A program made the position numbers and the translations under genes. The notes beneath the pieces were generated by a model. It had not been told where the DNA came from and did no database searches. It saw nothing but the letters and a program-made list of their open reading frames with translations. From Bacilli bacterium (GTDB lineage: Bacteria; Bacillota_I; Bacilli_A; RF39; UBA660), in contig JAUVZX010000002.1 of the NCBI GenBank assembly GCA_030602345.1, positions 71,049-135,048 of the forward strand: a DNA stretch of 64,000 nt, in the 5' to 3' direction. Positions 10,782 through 30,480 of this stretch are shown here, one piece after another (position 1 is the first letter of the stretch; the number at the start of each line of letters is the position of its first letter).

Positions 10782-10814
10782 TATGTTATAATATTTTAGA
10801 AAAGGAGGACAAAT

Positions 10815-11804: not shown

Positions 11805-11850
11805 AAACCTAATAAGGTTTTTTTATTTTGGACATTGATGTATAATAAGA

Positions 11851-12894: not shown

Positions 12895-12903
12895 GAGGCA
12901 CTT

Positions 12904-14160: not shown

Positions 14161-14262
14161 AAACTTTAAAAGTATGATAAAGTATTAATGGTTTAAAAAA
14201 TTATTTTGTTCCCGACCAAAAGACCTAATAACTATTAAATCAAATATATAAGGAGGAACAAA

Positions 14263-14460
14263 ATGAAAGAATATAACGATATTACTTTAGTTTGTCAAGA
14301 AACAGGTGTTGAATTTGTTTGGACAGCTGGAGAACAAAAGTTCTATGACGAAAAAGGGTTAACAAATCAACCTAAATATTGTCCAGAAGTTCGTGCAAGA
14401 AGAAAAGCTGCTAGAGATAACAGAAACTTCAGAAACAACAGAAACGACAACAGAAACTAA
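14263..14460 (+). CDS. Small zinc-ribbon (zf-trcl-like) protein with C-terminal RN repeats
   Basis: LVCQETGVEFVWTAGEQKFYDEKGLTNQPKYCPEVRARRKAAR resembles the probable zinc-ribbon (zf-trcl) family, but the first Cys pair is degenerate. The tail is RDNRNFRNNRNDNRN. Confidence 0.45.
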   Translation: MKEYNDITLVCQETGVEFVWTAGEQKFYDEKGLTNQPKYCPEVRARRKAARDNRNFRNNRNDNRN

Positions 14461-14510
14461 TAACAGAAATGTTATAAAAAAGTAATATGAAAGTATTACT
14501 TTTCTATTAT

Positions 14511-14587
14511 GGCGATTATGGTGAAGTGGTTAACACGGTAGATTGTGGTTCTATTATGCGTGGGTTCGATCCCCACTAGTCGCCCCA
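14511..14587 (+). tRNA. tRNA-His (anticodon GTG), with G-1 and encoded CCA
   Basis: Folded by hand. Acceptor GCGATTA pairs with TAGTCGC (one G-U), there is an extra 5' G (G-1) opposite discriminator C73, the T-arm is GTGGG-TTCGATC-CCCAC, and the anticodon stem GTAGA/TCTAT carries loop TTGTGGT with anticodon GTG. Confidence 0.85.
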
Positions 14588-14629
14588 TATTTAGGGTAAT
14601 AAAACCTTTTGGTTTTTATTGATATAAAA

Positions 14630-14668
14630 AACCTAGGATTTCCAATAGGAATCTAGGTTTTTTTGTCG
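14630..14668 (+). terminator. Rho-independent terminator after tRNA-His
   Basis: Imperfect palindrome CCTAGGATTTCCAATAGGAATCTAGG followed by T7. Confidence 0.55.
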
Positions 14669-14691
14669 TTTAAAAAGAAAGGTTTGATTAT

Positions 14692-14991
14692 ATGAAATTT
14701 GAAAAAGAAAAATTACCATTAAATAATAACTTATATAATAAGCTAAATAATATATGTAATTTTAGCAATATAAGGTTAGAAGTTGTTAATGGATTGATAT
14801 TTAAGGCTAAAGATATGAATATTAGTTTTATCGAGCCTCATAGATTTGTAATAGTTGTTAATGATATTAAATTAGTATTATTATGCTATGACAATTTAAA
14901 CTTATATTTATATGAAAAAGATAAACCAATAAATATACCGATATTAAAAGAAATAATTGATGGCATTAAAGGAGGAATATATAATGGCTAA
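14692..14991 (+). CDS. Hypothetical protein
   Basis: 99-aa ORF overlapping the start of the Rep-like gene; no motif. Confidence 0.3.
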   Translation: MKFEKEKLPLNNNLYNKLNNICNFSNIRLEVVNGLIFKAKDMNISFIEPHRFVIVVNDIKLVLLCYDNLNLYLYEKDKPINIPILKEIIDGIKGGIYNG

Positions 14992-15823
14992 GAAAAAATT
15001 AGGTATAGGAAATATTGAAATAAACAAAAAGTTCAAAGATAAAGAAGAAGCATATAGATATGCTAAAAGATTAATTGAAAAAATTAGATGTGTCTGCAAC
15101 GATAAAGCCGATAAAGGTTGGTATGCTCAAGCTATGGTAGTATGTAGCAACTTAAAAAAGGATGTAAGCACATTGAGATACGAAATAACGGATAAAAGAG
15201 GTAGGCCAAGGAAGAAACACGATATTAATAATATTATTGCTAATGGCTGGTATAAAGGGGATTATAAGACGGATTGGCATTTACATATATTATTAGTAAG
15301 TAAACCAAGTTATATGTTTAGAAATATAATAAAGAGTTATATAGATAAAAACTGGAACGAAGTGCCTAATGCATATGAAGTTGAGCCTTTTGATATAAAA
15401 AAATTAAATGTGGAAAAGACATATAAGAAAAAATGTAATATTACAATGGCAGATTATTTTATATGGCAATGCGATGAAGTGCTTTTCTATAATAGTAAAT
15501 TTGGCGAGGAAGGAGAATTAAAATATAGTTTAAAGGAATACTATAGAGAATATTTAAAATTAGATAGTGCTAAAAGAAGATTATATAGACAACATAGATT
15601 AAATCCAATGAGTGAAGAAAATTATTTAGAGAAAGAAAAAAAGATAGAAAGTAAATTTAAAGAAATAGAAGCTTACTTTTTAAATATAACCGAAGAGCAA
15701 GATAAAAAAGAGGTGGATGAATTTATGAGAAAAGCAAGAATAAATAAAATAATTGAGAGTAAGGAAAATAATAAAGTACAGAGTATTAGAAGAAACAGAA
15801 AAGATGAATATAGTTTGTTTTAA
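14984..15823 (+). CDS. Putative HUH-motif Rep-like protein (rolling-circle replication initiator / Rep_2-like)
   Basis: AGGAGG RBS before the ATG at 14984. The HUH-like block DWHLHILLVSKPS resembles pMV158 RepB KAHYHVLYIAKNP, and iterons lie directly downstream. The assignment is tentative. Confidence 0.35.
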   Translation: MAKKKLGIGNIEINKKFKDKEEAYRYAKRLIEKIRCVCNDKADKGWYAQAMVVCSNLKKDVSTLRYEITDKRGRPRKKHDINNIIANGWYKGDYKTDWHLHILLVSKPSYMFRNIIKSYIDKNWNEVPNAYEVEPFDIKKLNVEKTYKKKCNITMADYFIWQCDEVLFYNSKFGEEGELKYSLKEYYREYLKLDSAKRRLYRQHRLNPMSEENYLEKEKKIESKFKEIEAYFLNITEEQDKKEVDEFMRKARINKIIESKENNKVQSIRRNRKDEYSLF

Positions 15824-15889
15824 AGAAAAAAGCATATATATATGTAGTTAATATATTATCATATAATATACACAATAAAATATATAAAA

Positions 15890-16000
15890 ATCGTATAAAG
15901 AATTATATATAGAAAGTATAAAGACTTATATAAATTTTTATTGTTAAATGTATAAAGTTAATATGATTACTGTATAAAAAATGGCAAAAATCTTTATACA
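15890..16000. repeat. Iteron-like direct repeats GTATAAAG (4 direct copies plus 1 inverted)
   Basis: GTATAAAG at 15893, 15916 and 15950; GTATAAAA at 15972; the inverted copy CTTTATAC at 15992. Spacings are 22-34 bp, in an AT-rich region after the Rep-like gene. Confidence 0.5.
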
Positions 16001-16107
16001 TATCTAAATATGTGTTTCCTATAAATAAAGGGAATTTTAAGATTTTATTAGGAGTACTGTATATACTATTTCGGAAATTACAATAAAAAAGCATTAAAAA
16101 AAGAAAA

Positions 16108-16317
16108 TTACTTTTCTTTATTTTCTATTTTTATTAATTCGTTAGGAGTACAATTCAATAATCTACAAAATTCCTCCAAATATTTAAATGAAATTAATGA
16201 GGTTTCTCCTCTAATAATTCTATTCATATTTCTTGATGTTACATTCATATTTTGGCATAGCCAATATTTACTTTTATTATTTTTCTTTAATAGTTCTTCT
16301 ATATTTAATTTTATCAT
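16108..16317 (-). CDS. XRE-family helix-turn-helix transcriptional regulator
   Basis: MIKLNIEELLKKNNKSKYWLCQNMNVTSRNMNRIIRGETSLISFKYLEEFCRLLNCTPNELI is an XRE HTH. It is divergent from the downstream membrane-protein gene. Confidence 0.6.
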   Translation of the reverse strand: MIKLNIEELLKKNNKSKYWLCQNMNVTSRNMNRIIRGETSLISFKYLEEFCRLLNCTPNELIKIENKEK

Positions 16318-16425
16318 TTCTATCACCAAGTTAATTGTATAAAATATGATAAATATAAATAAGATACTTGCATTACCCACATTAATTATAATATAATGGT
16401 ATTGTATATGTGGAAGGAGATATTT

Positions 16426-17010
16426 ATGATAGTATTTGACATATTAGTTTATTTAATTATGGCAGGGATATTCGCATTGCCAATATATTTGATAGTTAAG
16501 AAAAGGGCGAAAAAAGGGAAAGTATTAAATGAAAATGGTAATTCTAAAGAAATAGTAAAGAAAGAAAAAGCATACGACAAGATAGATATGACACATATCG
16601 CTGGAATAGATAATATTCAAAAGACACAAGACTGTAAAGTTATCTTATATGCAGATAAAATAAATATTTATTTTACTAAGAATATGGAATTCAATGTTAA
16701 GAGTGAAAATATAAAAGGTATGAGTATCATATTAGCTAAGGATTTATTAGAAAAGAAAAAAAGTCCAGTTCTTCGCGGTATAGTTGGTAATGTTATAGCT
16801 GGTCCTGGTGGTTTAATATTAGGTGGAATGTCGGGTTTAAATAAAGGTAGTAAAAGCGAATATGTATTAATTATTAATTACTTATCAAAAAATGAAGAAG
16901 AAAAATCTTTAGTATTTGGAATTAAGTATGGAAAAGTATTAGCAGAAAACTTTATTAAGAAATTTGAAAATATAAATAACAAAAGCATGAAAATTGATGT
17001 AGAATTATAA
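16426..17010 (+). CDS. Hypothetical membrane-anchored protein with a Gly-rich segment
   Basis: N-terminal TM segment (MIVFDILVYLIMAGIFALPIYLIV), a Gly-rich stretch GIVGNVIAGPGGLILGGMSGL, and a GGAAGGAG RBS. It is divergent from the XRE gene. Confidence 0.35.
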   Translation: MIVFDILVYLIMAGIFALPIYLIVKKRAKKGKVLNENGNSKEIVKKEKAYDKIDMTHIAGIDNIQKTQDCKVILYADKINIYFTKNMEFNVKSENIKGMSIILAKDLLEKKKSPVLRGIVGNVIAGPGGLILGGMSGLNKGSKSEYVLIINYLSKNEEEKSLVFGIKYGKVLAENFIKKFENINNKSMKIDVEL

Positions 17011-17258
17011 GTCTAATACCTTTATTAGGCTTTTTTAATGCAAATGATGGCTTATTTGCTATAAATGAAGCTGTATTTAAAGAGTTATAATAATATTAAA
17101 TAAAATATATATGGAAAAGTATTTGAATGCTTAAAAGCCGATTTTATGGCTAAAAGCTCGATTTGCAATTTTCTCCAAAAAATTATATAATAAACTCAAT
17201 CGCAACTATTGCAAAAAAACAAGAAAATTGATATACTTAATAGGTAGGAGAAGATAAT

Positions 17259-18482
17259 ATGGCAAAACAAAGAAAATATAATGTAGTATCCTTATTTTCT
17301 GGTGCAGGGGGAATGGACTTAGGATTTAAAAATAAAGGATTTAACATAGTATGGGCAAATGATTTTTTCCAAGAGGCAGTTGATACATATAAAAAAAATA
17401 TTGGTGATCATATTGTTTTTGGAGATATAACAAAAATAAAGAGTGATGAAATACCTAATGATGTAGATGTTGTAATTGGTGGATTTCCTTGCCAAGGATT
17501 TTCTGTCGCTAATACAAAAAGAAGTATGAAAGACGAAAGAAATTTTTTGTATAAAGAAATGTTGAGAATAATAAAAGACAAGCAACCTAAGTTTTTTGTT
17601 GCAGAAAATGTAAAAGGATTGCTTTCCATGGAAAAAGGCAAAGTAATCAAAATGATAAAAAAAGATTTTGAATCTTTGGGATACAAAGTAGATGCAAGAT
17701 TGTTAAATGCTGCAGAATATGGTGTGCCTCAAGCAAGAGAAAGAGTAGTTATTATAGGTAATAAGTTGGGATTAGAAAATGTTTATCCTAAAATTACGCA
17801 TTGGGTTGATAGTAAAAAATATGAGTCTAAGAAAGAATTAAAGAAACCAAATACAGTTGAAAAAGCAATAAGTTTTTTATCAGATGTTAATGTCAGCTAT
17901 AATCCTATTAATTTAAATGGAGAGATTATATATAATCATATTGCTTCAACAAATGTATATGATAAATTTTGGGGGCGAAAATATAAAGTCAATCAAGCCG
18001 ATATATGTGATTATTTAAAAGAGTGGAGAAAAAAATCTGGTTGGTCAACAATGAGAGTTGATGAGCATTTTGGTTATAGGCATACAGCTGGACACTGGTT
18101 TAGAAAAGATAATGGGTCGGGGAGCATTCCAAAACCTAGTGATTGGTGGGAATTAAAAAAAATATTAGGATTTGACGATAAGTATGATAAAAAAGTAACT
18201 ACAATGGAAGAAAAAGAAATAAAATTTGAACAGTCATTAAGAATTACAAATTGGGATAGGCCTAGTGATACTATAACAGCAACTGGACCCGAAATACACG
18301 TTAATAAAGAGAGACGCCTTAGCGTAAGAGAATGTGCAATTTTACAGACGTTTCCTAATGATTTTATTTTTACTGGTAGTATAAATAAAATGTATAAACA
18401 AATAGGTAATGCAGTTCCAGTTTTATTAGCAGAAAAGATAGCAAATGAAATATTAAACCAATTAAAAGAGGAGGCTAATTAA
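17259..18482 (+). CDS. DNA (cytosine-5)-methyltransferase
   Basis: C5-MTase motifs: I FSGAGGMDLGF, IV GFPCQGFS, VI ENVKGL, X QIGNAVPV. Confidence 0.9.
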   Translation: MAKQRKYNVVSLFSGAGGMDLGFKNKGFNIVWANDFFQEAVDTYKKNIGDHIVFGDITKIKSDEIPNDVDVVIGGFPCQGFSVANTKRSMKDERNFLYKEMLRIIKDKQPKFFVAENVKGLLSMEKGKVIKMIKKDFESLGYKVDARLLNAAEYGVPQARERVVIIGNKLGLENVYPKITHWVDSKKYESKKELKKPNTVEKAISFLSDVNVSYNPINLNGEIIYNHIASTNVYDKFWGRKYKVNQADICDYLKEWRKKSGWSTMRVDEHFGYRHTAGHWFRKDNGSGSIPKPSDWWELKKILGFDDKYDKKVTTMEEKEIKFEQSLRITNWDRPSDTITATGPEIHVNKERRLSVRECAILQTFPNDFIFTGSINKMYKQIGNAVPVLLAEKIANEILNQLKEEAN

Positions 18483-18493
18483 TAGCTCCTCTT

Positions 18494-19492
18494 TTATAAA
18501 ACCTCGTAATATTTTCTTTGTCCGCTCCAATAAACGTTTTTAGAATCGTATCTTTTTTCAAGCCATGCATCGTTATAACGTCCAGTATCTCCGCTTTTTA
18601 CAGCTTCTAAAAATATCTCTTGATGGTTTCCTTTTTTTCTTTTAACAGTAAACCATCCAATTTCTTTGTTAGAATCAAAATATCCTAGTTTAGAACGACC
18701 TTCGATTCTTTGCCAATCGCTAGGAATATATACAGCGTTTTCTATTTTTTTATACATATTTTCTTTATTTAAATTTGAGTATTCAATTTCGTCGGTTATA
18801 TATTTTGGCTTAAAATATTCGCCATGTGATTTATTATAATAAATATAATTTTTGAAATTTGTAAATAGGTTGTTTTCAAAAAGATTACTTAGAAGACCGT
18901 TTGGCAAACAAGTTAGAATTAATGTTGGTGTTTTAGAGTCATTGCAAATGCTGAAAGCCCCTTTTCCACTATCTGCATAAACTATTTTTATTAAATAAGT
19001 TAATAATGGTTTGTTTGTCCTAGAATCCATAGCTCTTAAGTTTGATTGGATTTTAAATCCTGGGAATGGTGGAAAAGCATCAACATTGTCATTAAGAAAA
19101 GAAGTTTGATTATGTTCAAATTGTGTTGTTTTTATTTCTCCGCCATTACCTACTTTATCAATTGTTTTAACATCTACATTTAAAATTATATCATCCAGCT
19201 CAATTGCTATATCACTGCTTATAGGTGCCGAAAAGAAAGATTTTGTTTGAAAGTTATTATATAAATAGTATCTTAATAATCTCTCAGAAGCTTCCTTTAT
19301 CTTGTTTTTCTTACCCCATATTTCTTGTAATATTGGATAATATTCTCTTGTTTCTGCTTCAATATTTTTTAAGTCATCCAAGAATTCTTTTGAATTAATT
19401 ATCTTTTCCAATTTATCCATATATTTTTTTTCTAAATCTAAAATAGAATTTTGAATAATTGATGGCTTTATTTCTAAACTTTGATATGCCAT
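18494..19492 (-). CDS. Putative Type II restriction endonuclease (uncharacterised family)
   Basis: 332-aa ORF convergent with the C5-MTase and 11 bp from its stop. The possible PD-(D/E)xK-like segment SDIAIELDDIILNVDVKT is the only motif. The assignment rests on context. Confidence 0.4.
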   Translation of the reverse strand: MAYQSLEIKPSIIQNSILDLEKKYMDKLEKIINSKEFLDDLKNIEAETREYYPILQEIWGKKNKIKEASERLLRYYLYNNFQTKSFFSAPISSDIAIELDDIILNVDVKTIDKVGNGGEIKTTQFEHNQTSFLNDNVDAFPPFPGFKIQSNLRAMDSRTNKPLLTYLIKIVYADSGKGAFSICNDSKTPTLILTCLPNGLLSNLFENNLFTNFKNYIYYNKSHGEYFKPKYITDEIEYSNLNKENMYKKIENAVYIPSDWQRIEGRSKLGYFDSNKEIGWFTVKRKKGNHQEIFLEAVKSGDTGRYNDAWLEKRYDSKNVYWSGQRKYYEVL

Positions 19493-19607
19493 GTTATCAC
19501 CTCTTAATACATTATATCATTTAAATTCTATTTTTTGTTAATTTGGAATGCAATAAAGTTGGTTGAGAAGAAATAATAAAAAATATATAATTAATTTGGG
19601 TGGTAGA

Positions 19608-20108
19608 ATGAGTAAGTTAAATATATTATATGGTAATATATTTGATTATTTAGATGGGATGGATGCCATTGTTAATTCAAATAATCAATATATGATTTGT
19701 GGTAGTGGAGTTTGTGGGCAAATATATAGAAGAGCAAGTAAAGAAAAATTAGAAGAATACTGTAAAAATAATTTTAATGAAAATATGAAAGTTAATGAGG
19801 TTAGGATAACTTCAGGATTTAATTTAGAATTAGATATAATCCATATATATTGTCCCAAAGCTTATGAGAGTAAAGAGCCCTTAAAAGAACTGTTAGAAAG
19901 CTATGAAAACATATTTAAAGTTGCTAAAGAGGGTGGATATAAAAATATAATATCGCCTATTTTAGGGACGGGGATACACGGTTATAAAGAAAAAGAAGTT
20001 ATTAAAGAAGTATTAAGAAAACTAAAAAAGTTAGCAAAAAATTACAAAATAAATTTTTATTTAATTATATTTAAGAAGGAGAAAACGAATGGAAAAAATA
20101 GTTTTTAA
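19608..20108 (+). CDS. Macro-domain protein (ADP-ribose binding / deacylase-like)
   Basis: ILYGNIFD..DAIVNSNNQYMICGSGVCGQIYRRA...ITSGFNL...IIHIYCP..and..NIISPILGTGIHGY match the canonical macro-domain blocks. Confidence 0.7.
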   Translation: MSKLNILYGNIFDYLDGMDAIVNSNNQYMICGSGVCGQIYRRASKEKLEEYCKNNFNENMKVNEVRITSGFNLELDIIHIYCPKAYESKEPLKELLESYENIFKVAKEGGYKNIISPILGTGIHGYKEKEVIKEVLRKLKKLAKNYKINFYLIIFKKEKTNGKNSF

Positions 20109-20280
20109 TGTTAAAGAAGTAGCAAAATATTTATCGGTAAGTGAATCAACAATTAGAAAATTAGTTAGGGAAAATGGTGTTCCGTATTATAGGATTTACT
20201 CTAAAATTTTATTTAATAGAGAAATAATTGATTTATGGTTAAAAGATAAACAAAATAAAAATAATTATTTTGTTGAATAA
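20089..20280 (+). CDS. Excisionase-family HTH DNA-binding protein (Xis/MerR-like)
   Basis: FNVKEVAKYLSVSESTIRKLVRENGVPYYRI...EIIDLWLK matches the excisionase-family HTH. It overlaps the macro gene by 20 nt. Confidence 0.55.
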   Translation: MEKIVFNVKEVAKYLSVSESTIRKLVRENGVPYYRIYSKILFNREIIDLWLKDKQNKNNYFVE

Positions 20281-20439
20281 ATAAAAAACTGTTTTGGTAA
20301 TATGAATATTAGATTTTTTACTGTATAATGATTGTAGTTGAGTATTGTTGTGATATTAGCATAACAGGTTAAAATTTATGTAATGTGTTTTGGTATCAAG
20401 TAATACATATAAGTAAAAGTTAAATTAAGAGGTGAATAA

Positions 20440-22155
20440 ATGAATTATATTGCGGGATATGAAGAAAAATATGCAATAATTATTGGAATAAATGAATATA
20501 AAAATACAAACAATCTTTTATATGCAGTAAATGACGCGGTTGCTATTGCAGATTTGTTAGAAAAAAAATTTGAATATAATAAAGATAATATTGAATTAAT
20601 ATTGGATAAAGATGCAACAAAGAAAAACATTTTAGATAAATATATTAAATTAATTGAAAAGACAAATGAAAATGATAGTGTTATTGTTTTTTATGCAGGG
20701 CATGGCTATACACAAAGATCAAAGAAAAATGATGTTGGTTTTTTGGTTCCAACGGATGCCAGTGTTGAAAATATTAATACATTAATCAGATGGGATGAAC
20801 TTACTCGAAATGCTGACTTTATTAAGGCAAAACATATGCTCTTTATTATGGATGCTTGCTATAGTGGATTAGCAGTTACAAGAGGATTTAATCCGGGTAC
20901 AAGTCGTTTTTTAAAGGATATGCTACAAAGATATTCTCGTCAAGTTTTAGTAGCAGGTAAGGGGGACCAAGTTGTTAGCGATGGAAACGGACCACTTCCA
21001 GAACATTCGATTTTTACAGGTCATTTGATTGAAGGATTGAATAATAGCGCCAAGAATAAATATGGAATTATAACTGCCAACGGGTTAATGTCCTATGTTT
21101 ATAACAAAGTTGCTAATGATACTTATTCTAATCAAACACCACATTATGGATTTATTGATGGTGATGGAGACTTTATTATAAATATTAATGAAATAAGCAA
21201 CATAATCGAAAAAGAAACTTCAGAGGGGAATGATTTATTAATAGATATTCCTTCTGCGTTTGAAGGGGACAACGATAAAAATATTTCTGATGAATTGGTA
21301 GAAGAAGTTAAAGAATTAGTTTCAGAAGATAAGAACATTATTAAGCTAGAAGGCCTAGTGAATTTTGAAATAAGAAAAATAATTGAATTGACTTCATATG
21401 AACATTTTTCAGTTAATGAGACAGCAAATCAAACGATAATAGATGAACGAATAGAAAAATATGAAGACATAATAAAAAATTTGCAAAGGATAATTATAAT
21501 TCTCTGTTGTTGGGGAAAAGAAAAGCATTTAAGAATAGTTGAAAAAATAATAAGTATGTTAGCGAATAATAATAGTCAAATAGGTGGAACAACTTCATTA
21601 ATTAATTTAAGATGGTATCCGATAATGATATTAATTTATTCTGGAATGGTTTCATCTTTGGCTTCGAATAATTTTGAATATTTAAGTGCCATTCTAAATG
21701 GTAGAGTTACCAATTTTAAAAGAGGATATATGGAAAGCGATTATGCTGTTATATTAGCTTCAAATTCAATTACTGATACAATGAATATTTTTAATAAGCA
21801 TCCAGAGGGTAAAAAGTATCATTATCCTTTCAGCGAATATATTTACAAGAAAATTCAACCAATGCTAGATGACTTATTATTTTTGGGAAACACTTATGAA
21901 GATTTGTTTGATATTTCTGAGTTATTAATAAGCTTAAAATATGTTGATATTAAATTTAAAGATGAGGAAAGTAGAGTTTGGGGACCGCAAGGAAGATTTG
22001 CTTATAAATATGAGGATAATGAGGAAAAGCTTTTTGAAAAACTTTCAACAAAGAATATTTTGAACAGAATTAATATATTTGATAATGATGAAAATAGGAA
22101 GAAAAAAATTGTAGACCTATATCAAAAATTTTTAAAAGGAATAAATCGTTTTTAA
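20440..22155 (+). CDS. Caspase-like (peptidase C14) domain protein with an uncharacterised C-terminal domain
   Basis: N-terminal about 250 aa: YAIIIGINEYKN...AVNDA, the His block VIVFYAGHGY and the Cys block LFIMDACYSGL form a caspase His/Cys dyad. The C-terminal 320 aa have no recognisable motif. Confidence 0.7.
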   Translation: MNYIAGYEEKYAIIIGINEYKNTNNLLYAVNDAVAIADLLEKKFEYNKDNIELILDKDATKKNILDKYIKLIEKTNENDSVIVFYAGHGYTQRSKKNDVGFLVPTDASVENINTLIRWDELTRNADFIKAKHMLFIMDACYSGLAVTRGFNPGTSRFLKDMLQRYSRQVLVAGKGDQVVSDGNGPLPEHSIFTGHLIEGLNNSAKNKYGIITANGLMSYVYNKVANDTYSNQTPHYGFIDGDGDFIININEISNIIEKETSEGNDLLIDIPSAFEGDNDKNISDELVEEVKELVSEDKNIIKLEGLVNFEIRKIIELTSYEHFSVNETANQTIIDERIEKYEDIIKNLQRIIIILCCWGKEKHLRIVEKIISMLANNNSQIGGTTSLINLRWYPIMILIYSGMVSSLASNNFEYLSAILNGRVTNFKRGYMESDYAVILASNSITDTMNIFNKHPEGKKYHYPFSEYIYKKIQPMLDDLLFLGNTYEDLFDISELLISLKYVDIKFKDEESRVWGPQGRFAYKYEDNEEKLFEKLSTKNILNRINIFDNDENRKKKIVDLYQKFLKGINRF

Positions 22156-22330
22156 ATGTTTACTTTTACAAAGACTTTAAATCAATATGATTTAGGTCTT
22201 TTTTTGTATTTGAAAAGGTATAATATTTAATTTTTAAATGTTTTAAAAGTATTTAAACTTTTTTAAAGAAAACCCTTGAGATTATGACAAAGGGTCTATA
22301 ATATATATTTTATGGTAAGGAGGGTCCATG

Positions 22331-22921
22331 ATGAATAATAGAATTTATGGATATGCGAGAGTGTCGAGCAAAGAGCAAAACGAGGAAAGGCAAATAAAAT
22401 CACTAATAGAAAACGGTGTAGAAGAAAGATTTATATTTGTTGATAAACAAAGTGGAAAAGATTTTAATAGAAGCCAATATCAAGTTTTAAAAAATGCTTT
22501 AAGAGAAAATGATATATTAGTTATTAAGTCAATTGATAGATTAGGTCGTAATTATAATATGATTATTGAAGAATGGCGAGATATTACTAAGAATATAAAA
22601 GCTGATATCAAAATAATTGATTTACCCATTATAAATACAGATAGAAATAAAGAATTATTAGGGACTGTTATTAGTGATATAGTATTAGGTTTATTATCTT
22701 ATGTTGCAGAACAAGAAAGAGCTTTTATTAAACAGCGACAAAAAGAAGGAATAAATAATGCTATGAATAAAGGGATTAAGTTTGGTAGACCAAAGATTAA
22801 TAAACCACAAAATTTTGATATTATTATTAGGAAATGGAAAAATAAAGATATTAAAACTAAAGAAGCGATGGAGTTATTAGAATTAAAGCCAAATACTTTT
22901 TACAATATGATAAAAATGTAA
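22331..22921 (+). CDS. Small serine recombinase (resolvase/invertase family)
   Basis: IYGYARVSSKEQNEERQ catalytic Ser motif, about 195 aa with a C-terminal HTH. Confidence 0.8.
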   Translation: MNNRIYGYARVSSKEQNEERQIKSLIENGVEERFIFVDKQSGKDFNRSQYQVLKNALRENDILVIKSIDRLGRNYNMIIEEWRDITKNIKADIKIIDLPIINTDRNKELLGTVISDIVLGLLSYVAEQERAFIKQRQKEGINNAMNKGIKFGRPKINKPQNFDIIIRKWKNKDIKTKEAMELLELKPNTFYNMIKM

Positions 22922-23028
22922 AGTTTTGATAAAAAATAAAAAAAATAAAAAAAGTATTTACATATTAAAAGTTTTCTGATATAAATATTTTGAGGAGTTA
23001 ATTCATATTTTTATGTAATTAATGATTC

Positions 23029-23145
23029 GTGCAAAAAGTGCAAAAAATTAAAAGTGTAAAAAAGTTAAAATCTCAAAAAAGCAGAAAACGTAAAAAGTGC
23101 AAAAGTGCAAAAGTGCAAAAAAGTGCAAAAAAAGTACAAACGTTT
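23029..23145. repeat. Phased A-tract repeat array (GTGCAAAA units)
   Basis: GTGCAAAA(A) units begin at 23029, 23038, 23054(GTGTAAAA), 23097, 23105, 23113, 23123 and 23134(GTACAAA). Spacing of 8-11 bp predicts intrinsically bent DNA. An 11-bp inverted repeat pair TGCTTATAGAG (23151-23161) / CTCTTATAAGCA (23183-23194) follows. Confidence 0.6.
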
Positions 23146-23214
23146 AATAATGCTTATAGAGATTTTTTTGTTATTTAAAAACCTCTTATAAGCAAAAAAA
23201 GAAAGGAGGTTATT

Positions 23215-23517
23215 ATGAATAATATTAAATTATTGCCACCACTTGAAGAATGGGACAGCGATAATCAAGGTTTATATTATTATGGAGATTCAATAGTAAA
23301 TGCTGATGGTTCATATAGTATGGAAGTCTTTAAAATGCCATTTCCAAGAGAAGAAGTATTCTATAGGCGAAGAAATATACCATCAAATATGTTAAATTTA
23401 CCCCAATATGACACTTGTAAGTATTGTAATAAAATACTTATTGATGGCTACTGGAGAAGAATGCATATGTGTAGAGCATGCTATGATAAAAAGCCTTGGG
23501 CAAAACCATTGTTCTAA
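23215..23517 (+). CDS. Hypothetical small Zn-ribbon protein
   Basis: 100-aa ORF with C-terminal CKYCN...CRACY; AAAGGAGG RBS. It lies between the two recombinase genes. Confidence 0.35.
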   Translation: MNNIKLLPPLEEWDSDNQGLYYYGDSIVNADGSYSMEVFKMPFPREEVFYRRRNIPSNMLNLPQYDTCKYCNKILIDGYWRRMHMCRACYDKKPWAKPLF

Positions 23518-23604
23518 TATTTGAAGTTATATCACTTCTATATTTTGATTATATAGAGGTGATATAATAACATTGTAATCATTCTGATATTTGGAGGTGA
23601 AGAA

Positions 23605-25296
23605 ATGATAAAAAATGAAGTTCAAAATAAAACCGCAGTGTACATTCGTGTTAGTACAGATGACCAAGCTCGTGAAGGACATAGTTTAGATGAACAACTT
23701 GATAGAATTAAAGAGTTTTGTAATTATAAAAAACTTGAAATTTTGAAAGTTTATAAAGACGATGGTAAAAGTGCAAAAAATATGAATGGCAGACCAGAAT
23801 TTTTAAAAATGGTAAATGATGTTAAAAGTGGTAAGATAAATAATATTTGTATTTACAAGCTTGATAGATTAACTAGGTCAGTAAGAGACTTAGAGGAAAT
23901 ATTAACATTGTTGGAAGAATGCGATTGTGGTTTAATGTCAGTAAGTGAAGAAATAAATACAAAAGGTTATATGGGAGTGTTCTTTATAAGATTAACAATA
24001 TTGTTAGCTCAATTAGAAATAGATCAGACAAAAGAAAGAACAATAATGGGGCTAGTTGGAACGGTTAAGCAAGGTATTCCAATTGGGAAATTACCAATTG
24101 GATATAAAAGAGATATTAATAACAGTGATTTGAAATTGAGAAAAAAAGCGATTATCAATGAAGAAGAGGCACAGGTTGTTAGAAGAATATTTAATCTGTA
24201 TTTAAAAGGCTACTCATATTACTTTATAGCAAAGAAGTTAATTGAAGAAGGCAATGCAATGAAAAAATGGAAGGACTATGAAATACAAAAAATTATTAAT
24301 AATAAAATATATTGTGGCGATATAGAGCATAGAAAATCCATTAAAGATAAAGAAACAGTTATTTATGAAAATGTAGTTCCTCCAATTATTAGTAGAGAAG
24401 TATTTAATGAATGCCAAGTTTTAATTGAGAAAAATAAACATAGTTTTGGTGGCAGTTTGGAGTATATGTTTGGAAAAACTCTATATTGTAATAAGTGCGG
24501 TAGTATGCTTGGTGTTAGTTCAAATAAGGGAAAAGGAATTAAACATTATTGGTGTAAAAAGTGTAATAGCAGATTAAATGAAAGTAAAGTTGAAAAAGCT
24601 ATTTTAGAAAAATTAGAAAGTATTGAGCAATTTAATATAGCATTAACCTATAATGCTATTATGGTTGATGATGATAGATTGACTGAAATATTAAACAATG
24701 TAGAATTAGAAGCACCAGACGAAAGATTAAAAGAAAGAAAAGAAGAACTTAGAGATTTGTTAGATGATGCAGTTTATAAAGCAAATATTTCTAAAGATAA
24801 GAAAGAAAATGCGCTGTGGTCAGATATGAATTATGAAGAAAAGAAAACCTTTATTAATACTATGATAGAAGCTATTTACATAGATAAAATTAAAGGTACA
24901 AATCAACAAGATTATGATGTTGTAATTAAGAAAATCAGATTTAAGCAAAGCAGAGTTATGGCATTCTATAAATTAATAAACCAAGGTATTATTGATTCGA
25001 TAAGTGCCAAAGCAAATGCTTATTATAGTTCTTTTGCTTTAATTGATAAAGAAGAAGAAATTCAAAATTACATAAAAAAATTAAGGCAAAAGTATAAAAT
25101 AAAAGTTGATGAAATAGTTATTAGAGGCGATGAACCAAAAAGAAAAAATAGTTTAAAAAAGATGGATGATTTTTTTGAGGAAGTATATTTTAACAATGAT
25201 AAATTATTTAAACTAATTAAGGTTGGCAGAAAGAATGAATTATTAAAAGGAACCTTTAATAAAGAAAAACATATATTTATTAGCTTAGAAGATTAA
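23605..25296 (+). CDS. Large serine recombinase (site-specific integrase)
   Basis: TAVYIRVSTDDQAREGHSLDEQ catalytic domain and a recombinase domain. The Zn-ribbon CNKCGS...CKKCNS and a C-terminal coiled-coil region give 563 aa, typical of large serine recombinases. Confidence 0.85.
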   Translation: MIKNEVQNKTAVYIRVSTDDQAREGHSLDEQLDRIKEFCNYKKLEILKVYKDDGKSAKNMNGRPEFLKMVNDVKSGKINNICIYKLDRLTRSVRDLEEILTLLEECDCGLMSVSEEINTKGYMGVFFIRLTILLAQLEIDQTKERTIMGLVGTVKQGIPIGKLPIGYKRDINNSDLKLRKKAIINEEEAQVVRRIFNLYLKGYSYYFIAKKLIEEGNAMKKWKDYEIQKIINNKIYCGDIEHRKSIKDKETVIYENVVPPIISREVFNECQVLIEKNKHSFGGSLEYMFGKTLYCNKCGSMLGVSSNKGKGIKHYWCKKCNSRLNESKVEKAILEKLESIEQFNIALTYNAIMVDDDRLTEILNNVELEAPDERLKERKEELRDLLDDAVYKANISKDKKENALWSDMNYEEKKTFINTMIEAIYIDKIKGTNQQDYDVVIKKIRFKQSRVMAFYKLINQGIIDSISAKANAYYSSFALIDKEEEIQNYIKKLRQKYKIKVDEIVIRGDEPKRKNSLKKMDDFFEEVYFNNDKLFKLIKVGRKNELLKGTFNKEKHIFISLED

Positions 25297-25327
25297 ATAT
25301 AAGTAAAAAAATGTTATAAATGCTATA

Positions 25328-26821
25328 ATGATTTGTAAGGAAGTGTATGTAGTGGAAGAATTATTAAAAACAATTTATTTTGATTATTATAATATTAAAA
25401 GGACAAATAAATTTACTACTGATAAAGAATTTTTCAGATTTCTGTATAATTTAAAAAATTATAAAGATAAAAAAATAAATGGCAATGAAATATTAAAAAA
25501 ATATTTAGATCCTGTTGTAAAAGAAATTAGAGATAAAATTGGTAAAAACACTTTAAAAGATGATTTTTTTTCAGAAAAGAATTTTGTACATTTAACATAT
25601 CCTCTTGAACAAACTATAAAAAGATTACAAATTATATATATTAGTTTAGGTGAAGAAGAATGGAATAAAATTTTTAGTTTTAAATATAGTTTTTTTGTTG
25701 ATTTTATATTTTTTCTTATTAGAAGAGTTTTGTTATTTAATGATTATGCACTTCAAAAAGATAATAAAAGAAAACGAGAATATGAAGAAAGTTTTTCAAA
25801 ATCAACAAATTTTTACTTTACCAAAGATGAACTTTACAGCTTTTTTCCAAAACACAAAAAAGAGATAGATAAGATATTTAATATTATAACAATAAATATT
25901 TTTGGTTTTGAAAAAGAAGCAGATGTTTTTAAGATTATTGAAAATGACAATAAATATATATTATATTTTTTATGGGATTTCACATATTTTTTATACGATT
26001 TAATAGAAGACGAGATTATCAAATACTATGGCATTAATTCCAAAGAGTTAGATAAATATTATTTGAAAAGAGGTAAGGCATTAGAAAAATATTGTTACAT
26101 AAGCTTAATAGATGCTTTTCCCAAAACAAATATTAGAAGAAATTTATATTATGATAGTAAAAATGGAAATAATGAAATAGATATTATACTTGAAACTAAA
26201 AACGAATTTATTATATTTGAGCAAAAGAGTTCAAAATTTGATATCCATCAAACAAAAGATGATGAAAATTTAAAAAAAGCATTTATTAAAGCATTTGGAA
26301 ATAGTTTTAAAACACTAAACAATTTTTATGAATTTGCTAAAAATGGTGATGGTGTTATGTATTTTAAGCACGATAAAAAGAAAGTTAATATTGATTTAAA
26401 ACATAAAAAAATAATATTGATTCAAGTATCATTACACAACATAGAGTATATGCAAAGTAGCGTTCAAAAATTTGATAAAAATTTAATAAAACCAGTTGCT
26501 AATTACCCTATATGTTGGAATTTTATAGATTTTTTAACAATATTAGAACTTGCGAAGATGAATACAGAAATTGTAATAGAATATATAAATAAAAGATATG
26601 ACATTTTAAATAGAAACAAAGAAATTACTTTGGATATAGATGAAATAGATGCTATGGGATTTTTAACTGACTCTAGATATAAAAAACAATATGAGATGTT
26701 AACGAATGATCAAAACAATAATGTAGATTTAAGATTTATGATAGGAAATGGAGCGTATAGAAATGAAGTAAATGAACTAATGAATTCAAGATTTTATGAT
26801 ATGCTTTTTAATGTAAAATAA
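25328..26821 (+). CDS. Hypothetical protein with a putative PD-(D/E)xK nuclease core
   Basis: 497 aa; GNNEIDIILETKNEFIIFEQKSS fits the D...(E/D)xK core of restriction-like nucleases. It starts 32 bp after the large serine recombinase stop. Confidence 0.35.
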   Translation: MICKEVYVVEELLKTIYFDYYNIKRTNKFTTDKEFFRFLYNLKNYKDKKINGNEILKKYLDPVVKEIRDKIGKNTLKDDFFSEKNFVHLTYPLEQTIKRLQIIYISLGEEEWNKIFSFKYSFFVDFIFFLIRRVLLFNDYALQKDNKRKREYEESFSKSTNFYFTKDELYSFFPKHKKEIDKIFNIITINIFGFEKEADVFKIIENDNKYILYFLWDFTYFLYDLIEDEIIKYYGINSKELDKYYLKRGKALEKYCYISLIDAFPKTNIRRNLYYDSKNGNNEIDIILETKNEFIIFEQKSSKFDIHQTKDDENLKKAFIKAFGNSFKTLNNFYEFAKNGDGVMYFKHDKKKVNIDLKHKKIILIQVSLHNIEYMQSSVQKFDKNLIKPVANYPICWNFIDFLTILELAKMNTEIVIEYINKRYDILNRNKEITLDIDEIDAMGFLTDSRYKKQYEMLTNDQNNNVDLRFMIGNGAYRNEVNELMNSRFYDMLFNVK

Positions 26822-26851
26822 TTAAAAAGTTATAAAAAATAAGTTTTGTGC

Positions 26852-26877
26852 CTATTGGAAGATTGCCCCATTTAAAA
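26852..26877. repeat. 27-bp repeated motif CTATTGGAAGATTGCCCCATTTAAAA (copy 1)
   Basis: Near-identical to 29396-29422 (CTATTGGAAGCTTGCCTCATATAAAA). Both copies lie about 25 bp after a stop codon and before a hairpin terminator. The GCCCCAT core resembles the tRNA-His 3' end. Confidence 0.5.
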
Positions 26878-27211
26878 AAATACTGCTCATTATCCAATGA
26901 GCCTTATAAATAAAGGGATTGCATGTTTGCAATCTTCTTTTTTATGCATTTTTTAGTTAAAATCGATGGTTTTTTCGCCCGAAAATGCAAATTTTTAAGA
27001 ACCTTTGTATTGAGGTGCTGTATTAAATTTATATTGAAAGCGTATTAATAAGTGCTAATAATACGTATTGAATATGTAATAATTAATGTATAATCTGTTA
27101 AAAACCACTTTAAAGTGTTATAATTTTATTGGGTGATAACGATATTTAAAAATTAATTCTAGAAATAAAAATAACTGAATATAAATATAAATAGGAAAGG
27201 GTGTTGAAAAA

Positions 27212-28057
27212 ATGAAATTATATGAAGGTCAAAAAATCACAATATTTACTAAACACAAAAAGGAGAATGCAATGGTGGAACTATTTAAAAATTCCATTGG
27301 TGGTGATATTGAAGTTTATGATAAATTTGATACTGATAAGCTTGGAACTTTTTCAAGAGAAATATCTAGAAAAAAAAGTCAAATAGATACAGCAAGAAAA
27401 AAAATCAAGATTGCTATAAAAAAATGTAAGGAAACCGATGTAATAGTTTCAAGTGAGGGTAGTTTCACTTCCCATCCTGATGCACCTATACCATGGAACA
27501 TTGAATTAGTTATGTTTTATGATGTAAAGAAAAAAATGGAAGTCTATGGTTTTTATGCAGGTTCAGAAACTAACCAGAGTCACATTTTGACAAACAATTA
27601 TGAGGAGGCTTTAGATTTTGCAAAAAAGATTGGTTTTCCATCACATCAATTGATAATGAGACCCGATAGCGAAAAGTCAAAGCATATAGTGAAAGATATT
27701 AATACCAAGTCAAAATTAAAAGAAACATTTGATTATTGCGTTTTGAAATCAAAAACAGGGAAAGTTTTTATAGAAACAGATATGAGAGCTTACGCCAATC
27801 CAACAAGAATGAAGAATATCGAAAAAGCAACAAAAAACCTAATTGACAATATACTCAATTTTTGCCCAAGATGTCAAGAACCAGGTTTTGTTGTAAGCGA
27901 AGTAATAAGGGGACTTCCGTGTTCGCAATGTGGATTTCCAAGTGATTTTCCTTTGGAGTATGTTTATAGTTGTTGGAAATGTAAAAAAACAGTGACAAAA
28001 AAAAGTGAGGAAGCAGCAACTGTTAATCCGATGTACTGTCATAATTGCAATCCTTAA
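27212..28057 (+). CDS. Hypothetical protein with C-terminal double Zn-ribbon
   Basis: 281 aa; C-terminal CPRCQ...CSQCG...CWKCKK...CHNCNP; no family recognised. Confidence 0.35.
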   Translation: MKLYEGQKITIFTKHKKENAMVELFKNSIGGDIEVYDKFDTDKLGTFSREISRKKSQIDTARKKIKIAIKKCKETDVIVSSEGSFTSHPDAPIPWNIELVMFYDVKKKMEVYGFYAGSETNQSHILTNNYEEALDFAKKIGFPSHQLIMRPDSEKSKHIVKDINTKSKLKETFDYCVLKSKTGKVFIETDMRAYANPTRMKNIEKATKNLIDNILNFCPRCQEPGFVVSEVIRGLPCSQCGFPSDFPLEYVYSCWKCKKTVTKKSEEAATVNPMYCHNCNP

Positions 28058-28344
28058 TTAAAATTGATAATGTTTAAATATAAATTTAAAGCAAACATTT
28101 TCGTATTACAGCTGTGACTTACCAGTGATATAAATAGCTTGTTGCCCCGTCATTTTAGACACACAAATTAAAATAATTATCGTATAAATTGGCTTCAAAA
28201 AAGAATATAAATTTATACTGAAAATGAAACTAACCCAATTGATATAAGGTAATAACCACTATTTTAAACTTGTATCGAGAATGTATTACAAATGTATGTG
28301 ATAAAAATACTAGACTTTTATTAAAATAAGCGGTATTTTGTAAA

Positions 28345-28396
28345 TGACTAGTGAGTATGTGGGCTGAGAAAATAGTAGACCTTCGCCCCATTAAAG
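28345..28396. repeat. Degenerate copy of the tRNA-His 3' half (putative att-site remnant)
   Basis: TATGTGGGCTGAG...AGTAGACCTTCGCCCCATTAAAG parallels the tRNA T-arm and acceptor plus flank TATGCGTGGGTTCGATCCCCACTAGTCGCCCCATATTTAG. A terminator hairpin ACAAACCTTTAAATAAGGTTTGT follows. Confidence 0.45.
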
Positions 28397-28526
28397 AAAA
28401 TGACAAACCTTTAAATAAGGTTTGTTTTCTTTTGGTAAAAAAGACATAACACACCTATATTAATTTAAGTAAGTTCTGTCATAACTATGAAATTTTTATG
28501 ATAAAATATTAATAGGAGGAACTACT

Positions 28527-29375
28527 ATGTTAAAAAAAATATTGACTTTATTGTTATTGATTTTATTTGTTAATGGATGTGGATCGGGCGCAAACCAAAA
28601 AAATACTGAAAATGTAAAGCAAGAAGAGAAATATGATAAATTAGTAATAAAAACAAAGGTGACTAACAAAGAAGAAAACGGTGGTTACTTAGTTTATTTT
28701 ATGCATGTAGGAGAAAGAAGAGAAGAAGCTGGAGAAGCTAATCAATCAGCTTTTGGACCTTTTGAAACAGACGATAATGGTGAATATATCTTGGATTTAA
28801 AATTTAATTTTAATAATGATATTGGGACATACTTAAAAAGTGGTGAAGGTAAAGAAAAAAATAAATTAGAAATGTTCATTGTAACTAGAGAAGACATTTA
28901 TATTCGTAATCCATTAAACAAAAAAACAATTGTAGAATTTATTCCTAATGAAACCGATGAACCTTATCCGGATTATTCATATTATTCTAAGAAAAAAGAA
29001 ATCGAAGTTTCCATTACAGATAAATATCCAGAAGGAGTATTATCACTGACTTTTCAAGATTCTATATTTGTTATAAAATTAGCATTTGATGAAGAAATCC
29101 CTCAAAAATCCTATGAAGTTTCTATTTTTTGGAGTGATCCAAGTAAACCAAGCGGAATTGGAACAATTCGTGTGGGAAGAATTAGTAGAGCATTTCAATA
29201 TTGGGATACTCCATTCTATAAATCAGATAATTTAGCAAGTAAGACAGGTACAATAATAATAAAAGATTTTGATACGAATGAAACTGTAGAATATGAAGAC
29301 TATCCAAAAACAGTGTCTTTTGATAAGGATGGAAATCCTATAGGGGATAAAGTACTTAAAATAAAATTAAGATAA
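28527..29375 (+). CDS. Putative lipoprotein
   Basis: Signal peptide with lipobox LLLILFVNGCGSG; 282 aa; no enzymatic motif. Confidence 0.5.
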   Translation: MLKKILTLLLLILFVNGCGSGANQKNTENVKQEEKYDKLVIKTKVTNKEENGGYLVYFMHVGERREEAGEANQSAFGPFETDDNGEYILDLKFNFNNDIGTYLKSGEGKEKNKLEMFIVTREDIYIRNPLNKKTIVEFIPNETDEPYPDYSYYSKKKEIEVSITDKYPEGVLSLTFQDSIFVIKLAFDEEIPQKSYEVSIFWSDPSKPSGIGTIRVGRISRAFQYWDTPFYKSDNLASKTGTIIIKDFDTNETVEYEDYPKTVSFDKDGNPIGDKVLKIKLR

Positions 29376-29395
29376 TGTTTCGATTGGTTTCGCGA

Positions 29396-29422
29396 CTATT
29401 GGAAGCTTGCCTCATATAAAAT
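29396..29422. repeat. 27-bp repeated motif (copy 2) followed by a terminator
   Basis: CTATTGGAAGCTTGCCTCATATAAAAT, then hairpin GTGAAACGAATTTATAAATGAGTTCGTTTTTTTAT. Confidence 0.5.
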
Positions 29423-29494
29423 AAAGTGAAACGAATTTATAAATGAGTTCGTTTTTTTATTCAAATGATATATAATTAAAACATAGGAGAGAAT

Positions 29495-29740
29495 ATGAAA
29501 AAAATCAAAATGCACAATTTATATAAAATATCATCAATATTAATATTGATTATGGGATTGATATTTACCTATTTTGTTGCAGATAGTGAAGACGCACCGG
29601 GATTTATTTTTTTGGGAACACCAGTAACGATTTTTTTAAGTTTATTTTTGTTTGAATTAGGAAATTTAATAAAATATATAGAACTACAAAATCAATTGCT
29701 GTTAGATATTTATAAAGAGATAAAAAACAAAATGAAGTAA
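29495..29740 (+). CDS. Small membrane protein, hypothetical
   Basis: 81 aa with two hydrophobic segments; GGAGAG RBS. Confidence 0.3.
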   Translation: MKKIKMHNLYKISSILILIMGLIFTYFVADSEDAPGFIFLGTPVTIFLSLFLFELGNLIKYIELQNQLLLDIYKEIKNKMK

Positions 29741-29770
29741 CCTGTTGCTAAAAATAAGATAAGGAGTATC

Positions 29771-30448: not shown

Positions 30449-30480
30449 AAAGATGCTTATTAAGCATCTTTTGTTTTTAA
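30449..30480. terminator. Bidirectional terminator between convergent genes
   Basis: AAAGATGCTTATTAAGCATCTTTTGTTTTT is a perfect hairpin with flanking A/T runs, placed between the 29771 gene (+) and pflA (-). Confidence 0.6.

Follow-up and report, generated by a model that had tools for sequence, protein, structure and literature searches.

Introduction

Islands arranged in tandem, together with passenger units and the pairing of a large serine recombinase (LSR) with a small one, form a design already known from the ssrA islands of Dehalococcoides and from the staphylococcal cassette chromosome (SCC). In SCC arrays, LSRs insert elements at the 3' end of a conserved gene, which stays intact, and units that carry no recombinase of their own share the same short repeat. 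The ssrA islands encode a large (DsiB) and a small (DsiA) serine recombinase (McMurdie et al., 2011; PMC3146451). Here, we analyze 64,000 nucleotides of DNA from an RF39-lineage Bacilli bacterium (contig JAUVZX010000002.1, positions 71,049 to 135,048 of the forward strand; hereafter the window), in which genes of a mobile element, including one for a 563-residue LSR, begin directly after a tRNA-His gene. We conclude that positions 14588–29414 of the window are probably three units, A, B, and C, which are arranged in tandem and were integrated site-specifically at the extreme 3' end of tRNA-His.

Among described systems, the Dehalococcoides ssrA islands and SCC appear to be the closest analogues of this array. 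As in the ssrA islands, with DsiB likened by description only, units are stacked in tandem against the 3' terminus of a tRNA-like gene, a short repeat of the gene end delimits every unit, an LSR (~540 residues there, 563 here) is paired with a small serine recombinase (~200 residues there, 197 here), some units have no integration module and were read in Dehalococcoides as cis-mobilizable passengers, and conjugation genes are absent. By contrast, the target in Dehalococcoides is the T-loop of tmRNA, with a 20-bp repeat, whereas the target here is the last six bases of tRNA-His, with a 6–9-bp core. The integration module there lies beside the left attachment site (attL) on the reverse strand, whereas the recombinases here lie toward the right attachment site (attR) on the forward strand; the phylum also differs, as does the cargo (reductive dehalogenases there, defense-type genes here). 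The array is like SCC and SCCmec (CcrAB, CcrC) in gene-preserving LSR integration and in its recombinase-less units. It is unlike SCC in its target, which is the protein gene rlmH (orfX) there and tRNA-His here, and in that the partner of the LSR is of the 197-residue resolvase type and not a second large recombinase. Assignment of the LSR as a Ccr ortholog was rejected, as it scored 134 bits with the CcrB model (cut-off 900), 101 bits with CcrA (cut-off 700), and 95 bits with CcrC (cut-off 900).

Serine integrases have been described as using 5–8-bp cores and targets inside open reading frames (ORFs), and tyrosine integrases as using long cores and tRNA targets (PMC8092301); a review of integrative and mobilizable elements (IMEs) likewise places serine recombinases inside genes and tyrosine integrases at tRNA ends (PMC5704250). 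The window LSR shares with the serine integrases of Bxb1, phiC31, and A118 the Resolvase, Recombinase, and Cys4 zinc-ribbon domain set, a short common core, and what appear to be small attachment (att) sites with imperfect dyad symmetry (PMC8092301). Unlike those enzymes, which disrupt protein-coding genes (PMC8092301; PMC5704250), the LSR family described here preserves a tRNA gene. Integration at a tRNA 3' end that regenerates the gene, with autonomous and non-autonomous units in tandem, also recalls tyrosine-integrase tRNA islands and the accretion of integrative and conjugative elements or IMEs with cis-mobilizable elements; the array differs from tyrosine tRNA islands in having no tyrosine integrase and in a repeat of 6–9 bp as opposed to roughly 15–76 bp. 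An integron was considered and rejected, as the array has no tyrosine recombinase, module B and a sister module in locus L002 share a promoter-like region, and every module starts with a terminator hairpin. Set against the textbook division between tyrosine integrases at tRNA genes and serine integrases within genes, the ten loci presented here point to a coherent LSR family devoted to a tRNA gene. A literature search found no paper pairing "serine integrase" with "tRNA-His", and tRNA goes unmentioned in a large LSR discovery paper; large island databases may already hold such cases.

Results

Four cores divide the locus downstream of tRNA-His

The tRNA-His(GTG) gene (14512–14587, plus strand), which encodes its own CCA, is the single tRNA that ARAGORN found in the window (Rfam tRNA score 60 bits). 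Its 3' end reads ...CACTAGTCGCCCCA, and the next base is T. An original prediction, made from the sequence alone, had mobile-element genes starting straight after position 14587, in agreement with ARAGORN, Rfam, and ORF annotation, and proposed a single island (14588–28396) closed by a decayed copy of the tRNA 3' half at 28345–28390. The end of this copy is genuine. The 9-mer TCGCCCCAT, which consists of the last eight tRNA bases plus T, occurs on the same strand at 14580–14588 and 28383–28391 (two copies in 64 kb versus 0.08 expected), and none of 100 dinucleotide-preserving shuffles reached two copies. The claimed T-arm and acceptor part did not hold up: the 40 nt 5' of the 9-mer (28343–28382) gave a local score of 5 versus a random mean of 5.5 and an anchored identity to the tRNA of 11/40 versus a mean of 10.1 for random 40-mers of the window. 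The only real repeat of tRNA-His at 28383–28391 is the 9-nt core. A copy of eight or nine bases is what a serine recombinase would leave, whereas tyrosine-integrase islands typically show a longer tRNA copy.

GCCCCA-type cores were found at 14582–14587, 26865–26870, 28385–28390, and 29409–29414, giving the order tRNA-His, A (14588–26870; 12,283 bp), B (26871–28390; 1,520 bp), C (28391–29414; 1,024 bp), and flank. Two of the junctions had not been predicted, TTGCCCCAT at 26863–26871 and TTGCCTCAT at 29407–29415, and both are preceded by the 20-mer CTATTGGAAGnTTGCCnCAT (two hits versus 0.00 expected). Because of these two junctions, 28383–28391 is internal and the array extends to 29414. Every unit closes with a copy of the last bases of tRNA-His and opens with a hairpin and U-run; in a terminator scan with folding, a hairpin and U-run lay directly 3' of each of the four cores, with all z-scores at -3.0 or lower. 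Each unit therefore appears to bring a substitute terminator for tRNA-His. The hairpin of A (14626–14661; fold -21.2 kcal/mol, z = -3.0) would, to judge from its sequence, end tRNA-His transcription, and the hairpin and U-run in the distal flank, on the far (B') side of the last junction (29415–29470, plus strand; fold -11.3 kcal/mol, z = -3.2), is probably the original tRNA-His terminator. A sequence scan found no more P-arm or core copies 3' of the 29415–29470 flank, and 29415–30459 might be a further, decayed module.

Relatives of the LSR lie downstream of tRNA-His

The LSR (23605–25296, plus strand; 563 residues) has a Resolvase domain (PF00239, 5.2e-33; residues 11–157), a Recombinase domain (PF07508, 4.8e-21), a PHROG integrase match (3e-97), and the catalytic motif YIRVST. 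The match to the zinc-ribbon family PF13408 was weak (21.5 bits, under the 25.3 cut-off), and Cys295, Cys298, Cys317, and Cys320 are invariant in the family alignment. Arg15 is also invariant, and Ser17 is present in at least 90% of 28 homologs. The protein has the resolvase catalytic domain with a serine nucleophile and the Recombinase and Cys4 zinc-ribbon features that define serine integrases, and it looks intact.

Metagenomic homologs of the LSR were numerous (48–88% identity), and IMG/VR contained relatives only at 45% identity or less. Contexts were collected by exact look-ups and by a scan of species-representative genomes with the LSR alignment, which gave nine further independent loci (L007, L011, L017, which is the same place as L023, L022, L024, L025, L027, L028, and L029) in metagenome-assembled genomes (MAGs) labelled Bacilli and "Tenericutes", with LSR identities of 54–87%. 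A 2.5-kb Ca. Onthocola contig (L026) had no usable context and was left out of the count. In all nine loci, tRNA-His(gtg) lies 0.5–7 kb upstream of the LSR on the same strand; with the window, the link to tRNA-His was present in 10/10 loci with enough context. After the tRNA, L007, L011, and L017 share a backbone of a 96–99-residue gene, a 240–290-residue gene, and an opposite-strand helix-turn-helix (HTH) gene, followed by variable cargo that often includes a Macro gene, a small resolvase of ~196 residues, and the LSR. The chromosomal genes upstream differ (Peptidase_M23 in L007, HSP20 in L011, DAP_DH in L017; at least three gene sets), and the far-side flanks are unrelated between loci. These contexts, in ten loci including the window, argue that the LSR family is tied to tRNA-His. 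The original prediction that DNA was integrated site-specifically at the tRNA-His 3' end is supported.

We aligned all junctions on the GCCCCA anchor. The resulting consensus for attP, the site of the free element, is AAAGGTTTnATGCCTATTGGAAttTTGCCCCA followed by TtTnTGGGaAAATcAAACCTTtTGGTTT. The P' arm, conserved 3' of the tRNA, reads TtTnTGGGaAAATcAAACCTTtTGGTTT and is followed by a hairpin with the loop TTCCAATAGGAA; in A, this region (14588–14661, plus strand) comprises the arm TATTTAGGGTAATAAAACCTTTTGGTTT and the hairpin with U-run at 14626–14661, and it is kept in all family members. The P arm, conserved 5' of the distal core, reads AAAGGTTTnATGCCTATTGGAAttTT. In A, the arm AAAAATAAGTTTTGTGCCTATTGGAAGATT and the GCCCCA core at 26865–26870 form attR (26835–26870, plus strand), which all relatives keep 3' of the LSR. 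In every locus, the junction is at an identical base past the tRNA CCA. Identity between the reconstructed attP and the bacterial site attB is confined to GCCCCA, plus T in some loci; the base after A differs between attL and attR in L011 and L024, and the window has a T/C difference at -7. Given these limits, the sequences indicate that exchange must fall within G71–A76 of tRNA-His. Arms of ~30 bp are conserved on each side of the core, and an outer inverted repeat, GGTTT...AAACC, puts the center of the ~50-bp attP near TTG/CCCCA. By contrast with these element arms, the B' half-sites are not conserved between genomes.

Could the array be the work of a recombinase encoded elsewhere in the genome, such as a tyrosine integrase, with the serine recombinases of A as cargo or serving resolution or inversion? 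The 3' ends of tRNA genes are classical tyrosine-integrase targets (PMC8092301; PMC4383910), a tyrosine element does sit at tRNA-His in the related genomes L181 and L182, and action in trans is needed in any case since neither B nor C encodes a recombinase. We nevertheless regard this explanation as improbable. First, the LSR co-occurs with P and P' arms and tRNA-His in 9/9 other genomes examined. Second, no more than ~100 nt separate the P arm from the LSR stop codon in most relatives, and the arm changes along with the enzyme: the most divergent LSRs (L027 and L028; 54–56% identity) have another P arm, TTACTCGCwCCyTTTGAGATT. Third, the common repeat of the LSR elements is 6–9 bp, compared to 18 bp for the tyrosine element at tRNA-His, which fits the published contrast between serine and tyrosine cores (PMC8092301). 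Finally, the array encodes serine recombinases only, as the original prediction implied, with no PF00589 (tyrosine recombinase) match in ORFs of at least 80 residues between 14.6 and 30.4 kb. The ORFs of at least 170 residues annotated from 33.5 to 63 kb are housekeeping genes, and none encodes a tyrosine recombinase.

The tyrosine element of L181 (5950–9379) and L182 (3334–6763) is 3.4 kb long, encodes a tyrosine integrase, an HTH protein, and a rolling-circle Rep (REP_ORF2-G2P), and is bounded by the 18-bp tRNA-end repeat TCCCCACATTTCGCCCCA. A second element follows, which encodes a 578-residue LSR (37% identical) and has ATTGCCCCA at its end. The tRNA-His site is thus contested by at least three integrase families. 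A 605-residue LSR (36% identical) lies just past a tRNA-Val/Asp/Phe cluster in L184, at the head of an 11.3-kb element (9293–20681) that also encodes TnpV, a relaxase, and a NikA-like protein. The last 8–9 bases of this tRNA-Phe, AGGCACCA(A), recur once, at 20673, an 8-mer repeat that is weak evidence by itself. tRNA-Phe is possibly the target of this relative, and tRNA-end targeting may be wider in this LSR clade.

Element A and module B vary independently

Contigs with parts of the locus were recovered by exact-protein look-ups and compared to the window by BLAST. In L002 and L003, tRNA-His is joined directly to window sequence 26865–28401 at 99.6% identity, and in L006, which is from the same species (flank 98.8% identical), the tRNA is followed directly by TTTAAAAAA, the start of the sequence from 26871 onward. 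In L004 and L005, the flank is 98% identical and a different module lies 3' of the tRNA. These contigs establish that 14588–26870 is present or absent as a block and that 26871–28390 travels independently. The boundaries, the variable presence of A, and the independent spread of B are thus direct observations. The empty-site comparison proposed with the original prediction was positive for the LSR element only, as L006 and L002/L003 join tRNA-His straight to the sequence after 26870. In L006, an IS3-family element (572–1285; OrfA with HTH) lies 9–10 nt past the tRNA-His end and breaks the start of the B-type module.

These contigs also bear on the single 14-kb island (14588–28396, with the copy at 28383–28391 as attR) that was originally proposed, which we now consider very unlikely. 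The exact 9-mer TCGCCCCAT does occur solely at 14580 and 28383, and accretion models let adjacent units excise together. However, L002/L003 and L006 carry the part from 26871 onward on tRNA-His without A, and B is 99.6% identical where the upstream flank in L002 is only 69% identical, so B travels alone. Moreover, an internal core with the family P arm occurs at 26835–26870, where the LSR element stops, and a further junction at 29396–29415. As a sole description of the locus, the single island is contradicted. Least likely of all is a hot spot kept variable by homologous recombination between repeated terminator or flank sequences, with incidental GCCCCA copies: the 250–300 nt similarity of module ends could support such exchange and GCCCCAT by itself is not rare in the window (4 hits versus 1.5 expected), but the junction base past the tRNA CCA is identical in every locus, chance falls far short of explaining the 20-mer and 9-mer motifs, and flanks past the far junction are unrelated while the element arms are conserved.

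Modules B and C have different ends

Module B (26871–28390, plus strand) has no recombinase and consists of two hairpins with U-run (26885–26936), a promoter-like region, a DUF6671 gene (27212–28057; PF20376, 3.5e-53), and a conserved 3' region of ~290 nt (28098–28390). It begins T(T)AAAAAAATACTGCTC and finishes ...GGGCTGAGAAAATAGnnnnnnnnnGCCCCA, terminating in TCGCCCCA, and is a second end-type, distinct from that of A. A module with different cargo in L002 was found by BLAST to match B over ~250 nt at the 5' end (80% identity) and ~290 nt at the 3' end (72% identity); the matching non-coding ends are 26877–27130 and 28098–28390 in the window and 2303–2558 and 4058–4357 in L002. The shared 5' end of these B-type modules contains the terminator and an extended -10 promoter-like sequence, TGTTATAAT, and the shared 3' end contains long perfect blocks such as GTATTACAAATGTATGTGATAAAA and AAAATAAGCGGTATT. 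The module in L004 has part of these ends. Rfam gave no match in the conserved ends, which might serve as arm sites for a recombinase or encode a small RNA. The searches made found no recombinase for B, and its end motif was confined to this species group.

Module C (28391–29414, plus strand), also without a recombinase, carries a lipoprotein-like gene (28527–29375). It starts with the P'-like sequence GAAAATgaCAAACC and a hairpin (terminator 28402–28426) and ends with an A-type P arm and the degenerate core GCCTCA (29409–29414); positions 26843–26880 and 29387–29424 are 82% identical over 38 nt. In L007, there are three P arms in series, and the junctions of the mini-modules, which carry an LD-carboxypeptidase gene and a 112-residue gene, read P-core-P'. 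From their ends, C and the L007 mini-modules would be non-autonomous members of the att family of A, which an A-type LSR could move in trans.

Two side observations concern stacking elsewhere. In L012, L014, and L015 (positions 1–50), the LSR element that also occurs in L011 is preceded by ...GTGGCTAAAAGTTTGTGTGTAACATGCCCCA and not by the tRNA; this sequence resembles the right terminus of a further module that separates the tRNA from the element. In L021 (3078–4043), a new hairpin and a 96-residue gene follow the LSR, P arm, and core. The first gene of L017 also has 96 residues, and L021 may hold two full elements in tandem, although the comparison with L017 is by gene size alone.

Discussion

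A model for integration and stacking

We propose that the 563-residue LSR, as the putative catalyst, recombines an attP of ~50 bp with an attB at the tRNA-His end. The putative attP would have GCCCCA as its core, preceded by a P arm (...GTTTTGTGCCTATTGGAAGATT) and followed by a P' arm (TATTTAGGGTAATAAAACC...), and tRNA-His would supply the left half of attB with its T-arm and acceptor end. Strand exchange would occur inside the last six tRNA bases, G71–A76, including the encoded CCA. In this model, tRNA-His would be left whole and only its terminator swapped, with each unit supplying a new hairpin and U-run. The right half of attB appears to be poorly specified, and the tRNA half is probably what the enzyme chiefly relies on; insertion would therefore occur beside the tRNA whatever lies beyond, hence the stacking. 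If units do stack in this way, A would be the most recent arrival. The LSR perhaps acts with the small serine recombinase, as in CcrAB and DsiAB, and the 100-residue protein encoded just 5' of the LSR is a candidate directionality factor. B and C would be recombinase-less passengers, of which C could be served in trans.

The model makes specific sequence predictions. The circular junction of A should read ...GGAAGATTGCCCCATATTTAGGG... (k-mer CCTATTGGAAGATTGCCCCATATTTAGGGTAATAAAACC), the site vacated by A should read ...TAGTCGCCCCATTTAAAAAAATACTG... (k-mer CACTAGTCGCCCCATTTAAAAAAATACTGCTC), and a fully empty tRNA-His site should read CACTAGTCGCCCCATATAAAATAAAGTGAAACG.

Several observations weigh against this interpretation or limit it. 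Neither a circular junction nor an excision product was observed, and the LSR is linked to the att sites by association only. For this species, we found no fully empty site, in which tRNA-His would be joined to the sequence from 29415 onward; a single pflA-anchored metagenome scan returned distant taxa only. Most related loci are metagenome contigs or MAGs, in which misassembly at repeats is possible. The ends of B are unlike those of A, and nothing ties B to the LSR. The dyad symmetry of attP is weak (9–12/22 positions) and its center ambiguous, and the crossover dinucleotide is therefore not fixed by sequence. The LSR is the last gene in most relatives, but lies 1.5 kb from attR in the window. 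A small serine recombinase was present in every member examined for gene content (L007, L011, and L017), and it might be required or be the real catalyst of some step. Finally, L099 (9605–18200) and L100 have an A-type left end and a 279-residue gene that is 94% identical, with cargo of Eco57I/TaqI_C-type and SwaI-like restriction-modification (R-M) genes and a KAP NTPase, and neither has a recombinase gene or a recognizable distal core within 10 kb. They may be degenerate or fixed copies.

A broader proposal, which we offer tentatively and think less likely to be right than wrong, is that a clade of LSRs in uncultured gut Bacilli has specialized on the last tRNA bases, including CCA, and recognizes essentially the tRNA half of attB. 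Such specialization would allow unlimited stacking, in a cassette array of P/P'-ended modules with defense and other cargo, served in trans by one LSR. If true, this LSR clade at tRNA ends would be a serine-recombinase counterpart of the integron platform. The locus also shows defense genes (R-M, Macro, and caspase-like genes, and KAP NTPase in relatives) being shuffled as small recombinase-less modules among gut bacteria. Serine integrases work at short sites and independently of host factors. As half of attB is a sequence conserved across many bacteria, the LSR could thus become an integration tool for hosts without an engineered landing pad.

Genes of element A

Element A (14588–26870, plus strand) appears to be an autonomous, LSR-bearing integrative element with defense-type cargo, and its backbone adjoins tRNA-His in the other contexts examined. 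Its first gene (14692–14991, plus strand) encodes a 99-residue protein with no Pfam, PHROG, or NCBIfam match, and a syntenic 96–99-residue gene comes first in L007, L011, L017, and L099. The second (14957–15823, plus strand; likely start 14984) encodes a backbone protein of 279–288 residues with 136 homologs, none of which (0/136) has a Pfam domain; no PHROG or NCBIfam family matched it either. Its invariant residues are His99 and His101, which form an HxH motif on a central beta-strand, and Tyr158, on a helix ~57 residues further on. An AlphaFold2 model (predicted local distance difference test score 77) had no significant Foldseek match in PDB or BFVD. The spacing of HxH and Tyr recalls HUH nucleases, and an HUH-type Rep or relaxase would be only a guess. 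With respect to IME features, an integration module is present, no relaxase family match was found, and the HxH...Y protein has no structural match. Pfam, PHROG, and NCBIfam detected no relaxase or conjugation genes in A, and there were no phage structural genes.

A Cro/C1-type HTH regulator (16108–16380, minus strand; PF13443, 3.9e-11) is divergent from the cargo, and a minus-strand HTH gene occupies the equivalent place in L007, L011, and L017. A also encodes a 204-residue protein. The R-M cargo comprises a type II C5 cytosine DNA methyltransferase (17259–18482, plus strand; PF00145, 3.5e-89; PADLOC MTase_II, 2.7e-104) and, convergent to it, a 332-residue ORF (18494–19492, minus strand) without a Pfam, PHROG, NCBIfam, or PADLOC match, which by its position would be the cognate restriction endonuclease. 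A Macro-domain protein (19563–20108, plus strand; PF01661, 6.3e-18) is recurrent cargo, as L007, L017, and L099 each have a Macro gene too. It is followed by a caspase-like protease (20440–22155, plus strand; PF00656, 6.6e-21), whose C-terminal domain resembles the candidate defense family PDC-S65 (PADLOC: PDC-S65 5.6e-40, caspase 1.5e-22).

The small serine recombinase (22328–22921, plus strand; 197 residues) is of the resolvase/invertase type (PF00239, 2.4e-25; PHROG DNA invertase, 1.8e-46), and a 196–198-residue resolvase gene just 5' of the LSR in L007, L011, and L017 makes it a conserved partner. Just 5' of the LSR, an ORF (23215–23517, plus strand) encodes the Cys-rich 100-residue protein, which has no family match and is a candidate accessory or directionality factor. 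Its position is filled by a 100-residue gene in L007/L008, and 76–79-residue genes are close by in L011/L017. A 497-residue cargo gene containing DUF4143 (25328–26821, plus strand; PF13635, 1.2e-06) lies between the LSR and attR.

Beyond the array, the pyruvate formate-lyase gene next to pflA (30460–31161) is split into two overlapping minus-strand ORFs, 31161–31595 and 31549–33369, of 144 residues and 606 residues, respectively. The 144-residue product contains the glycyl-radical motif RVSGYAV. The split suggests that the gene is frameshifted, is a pseudogene, or was misassembled.

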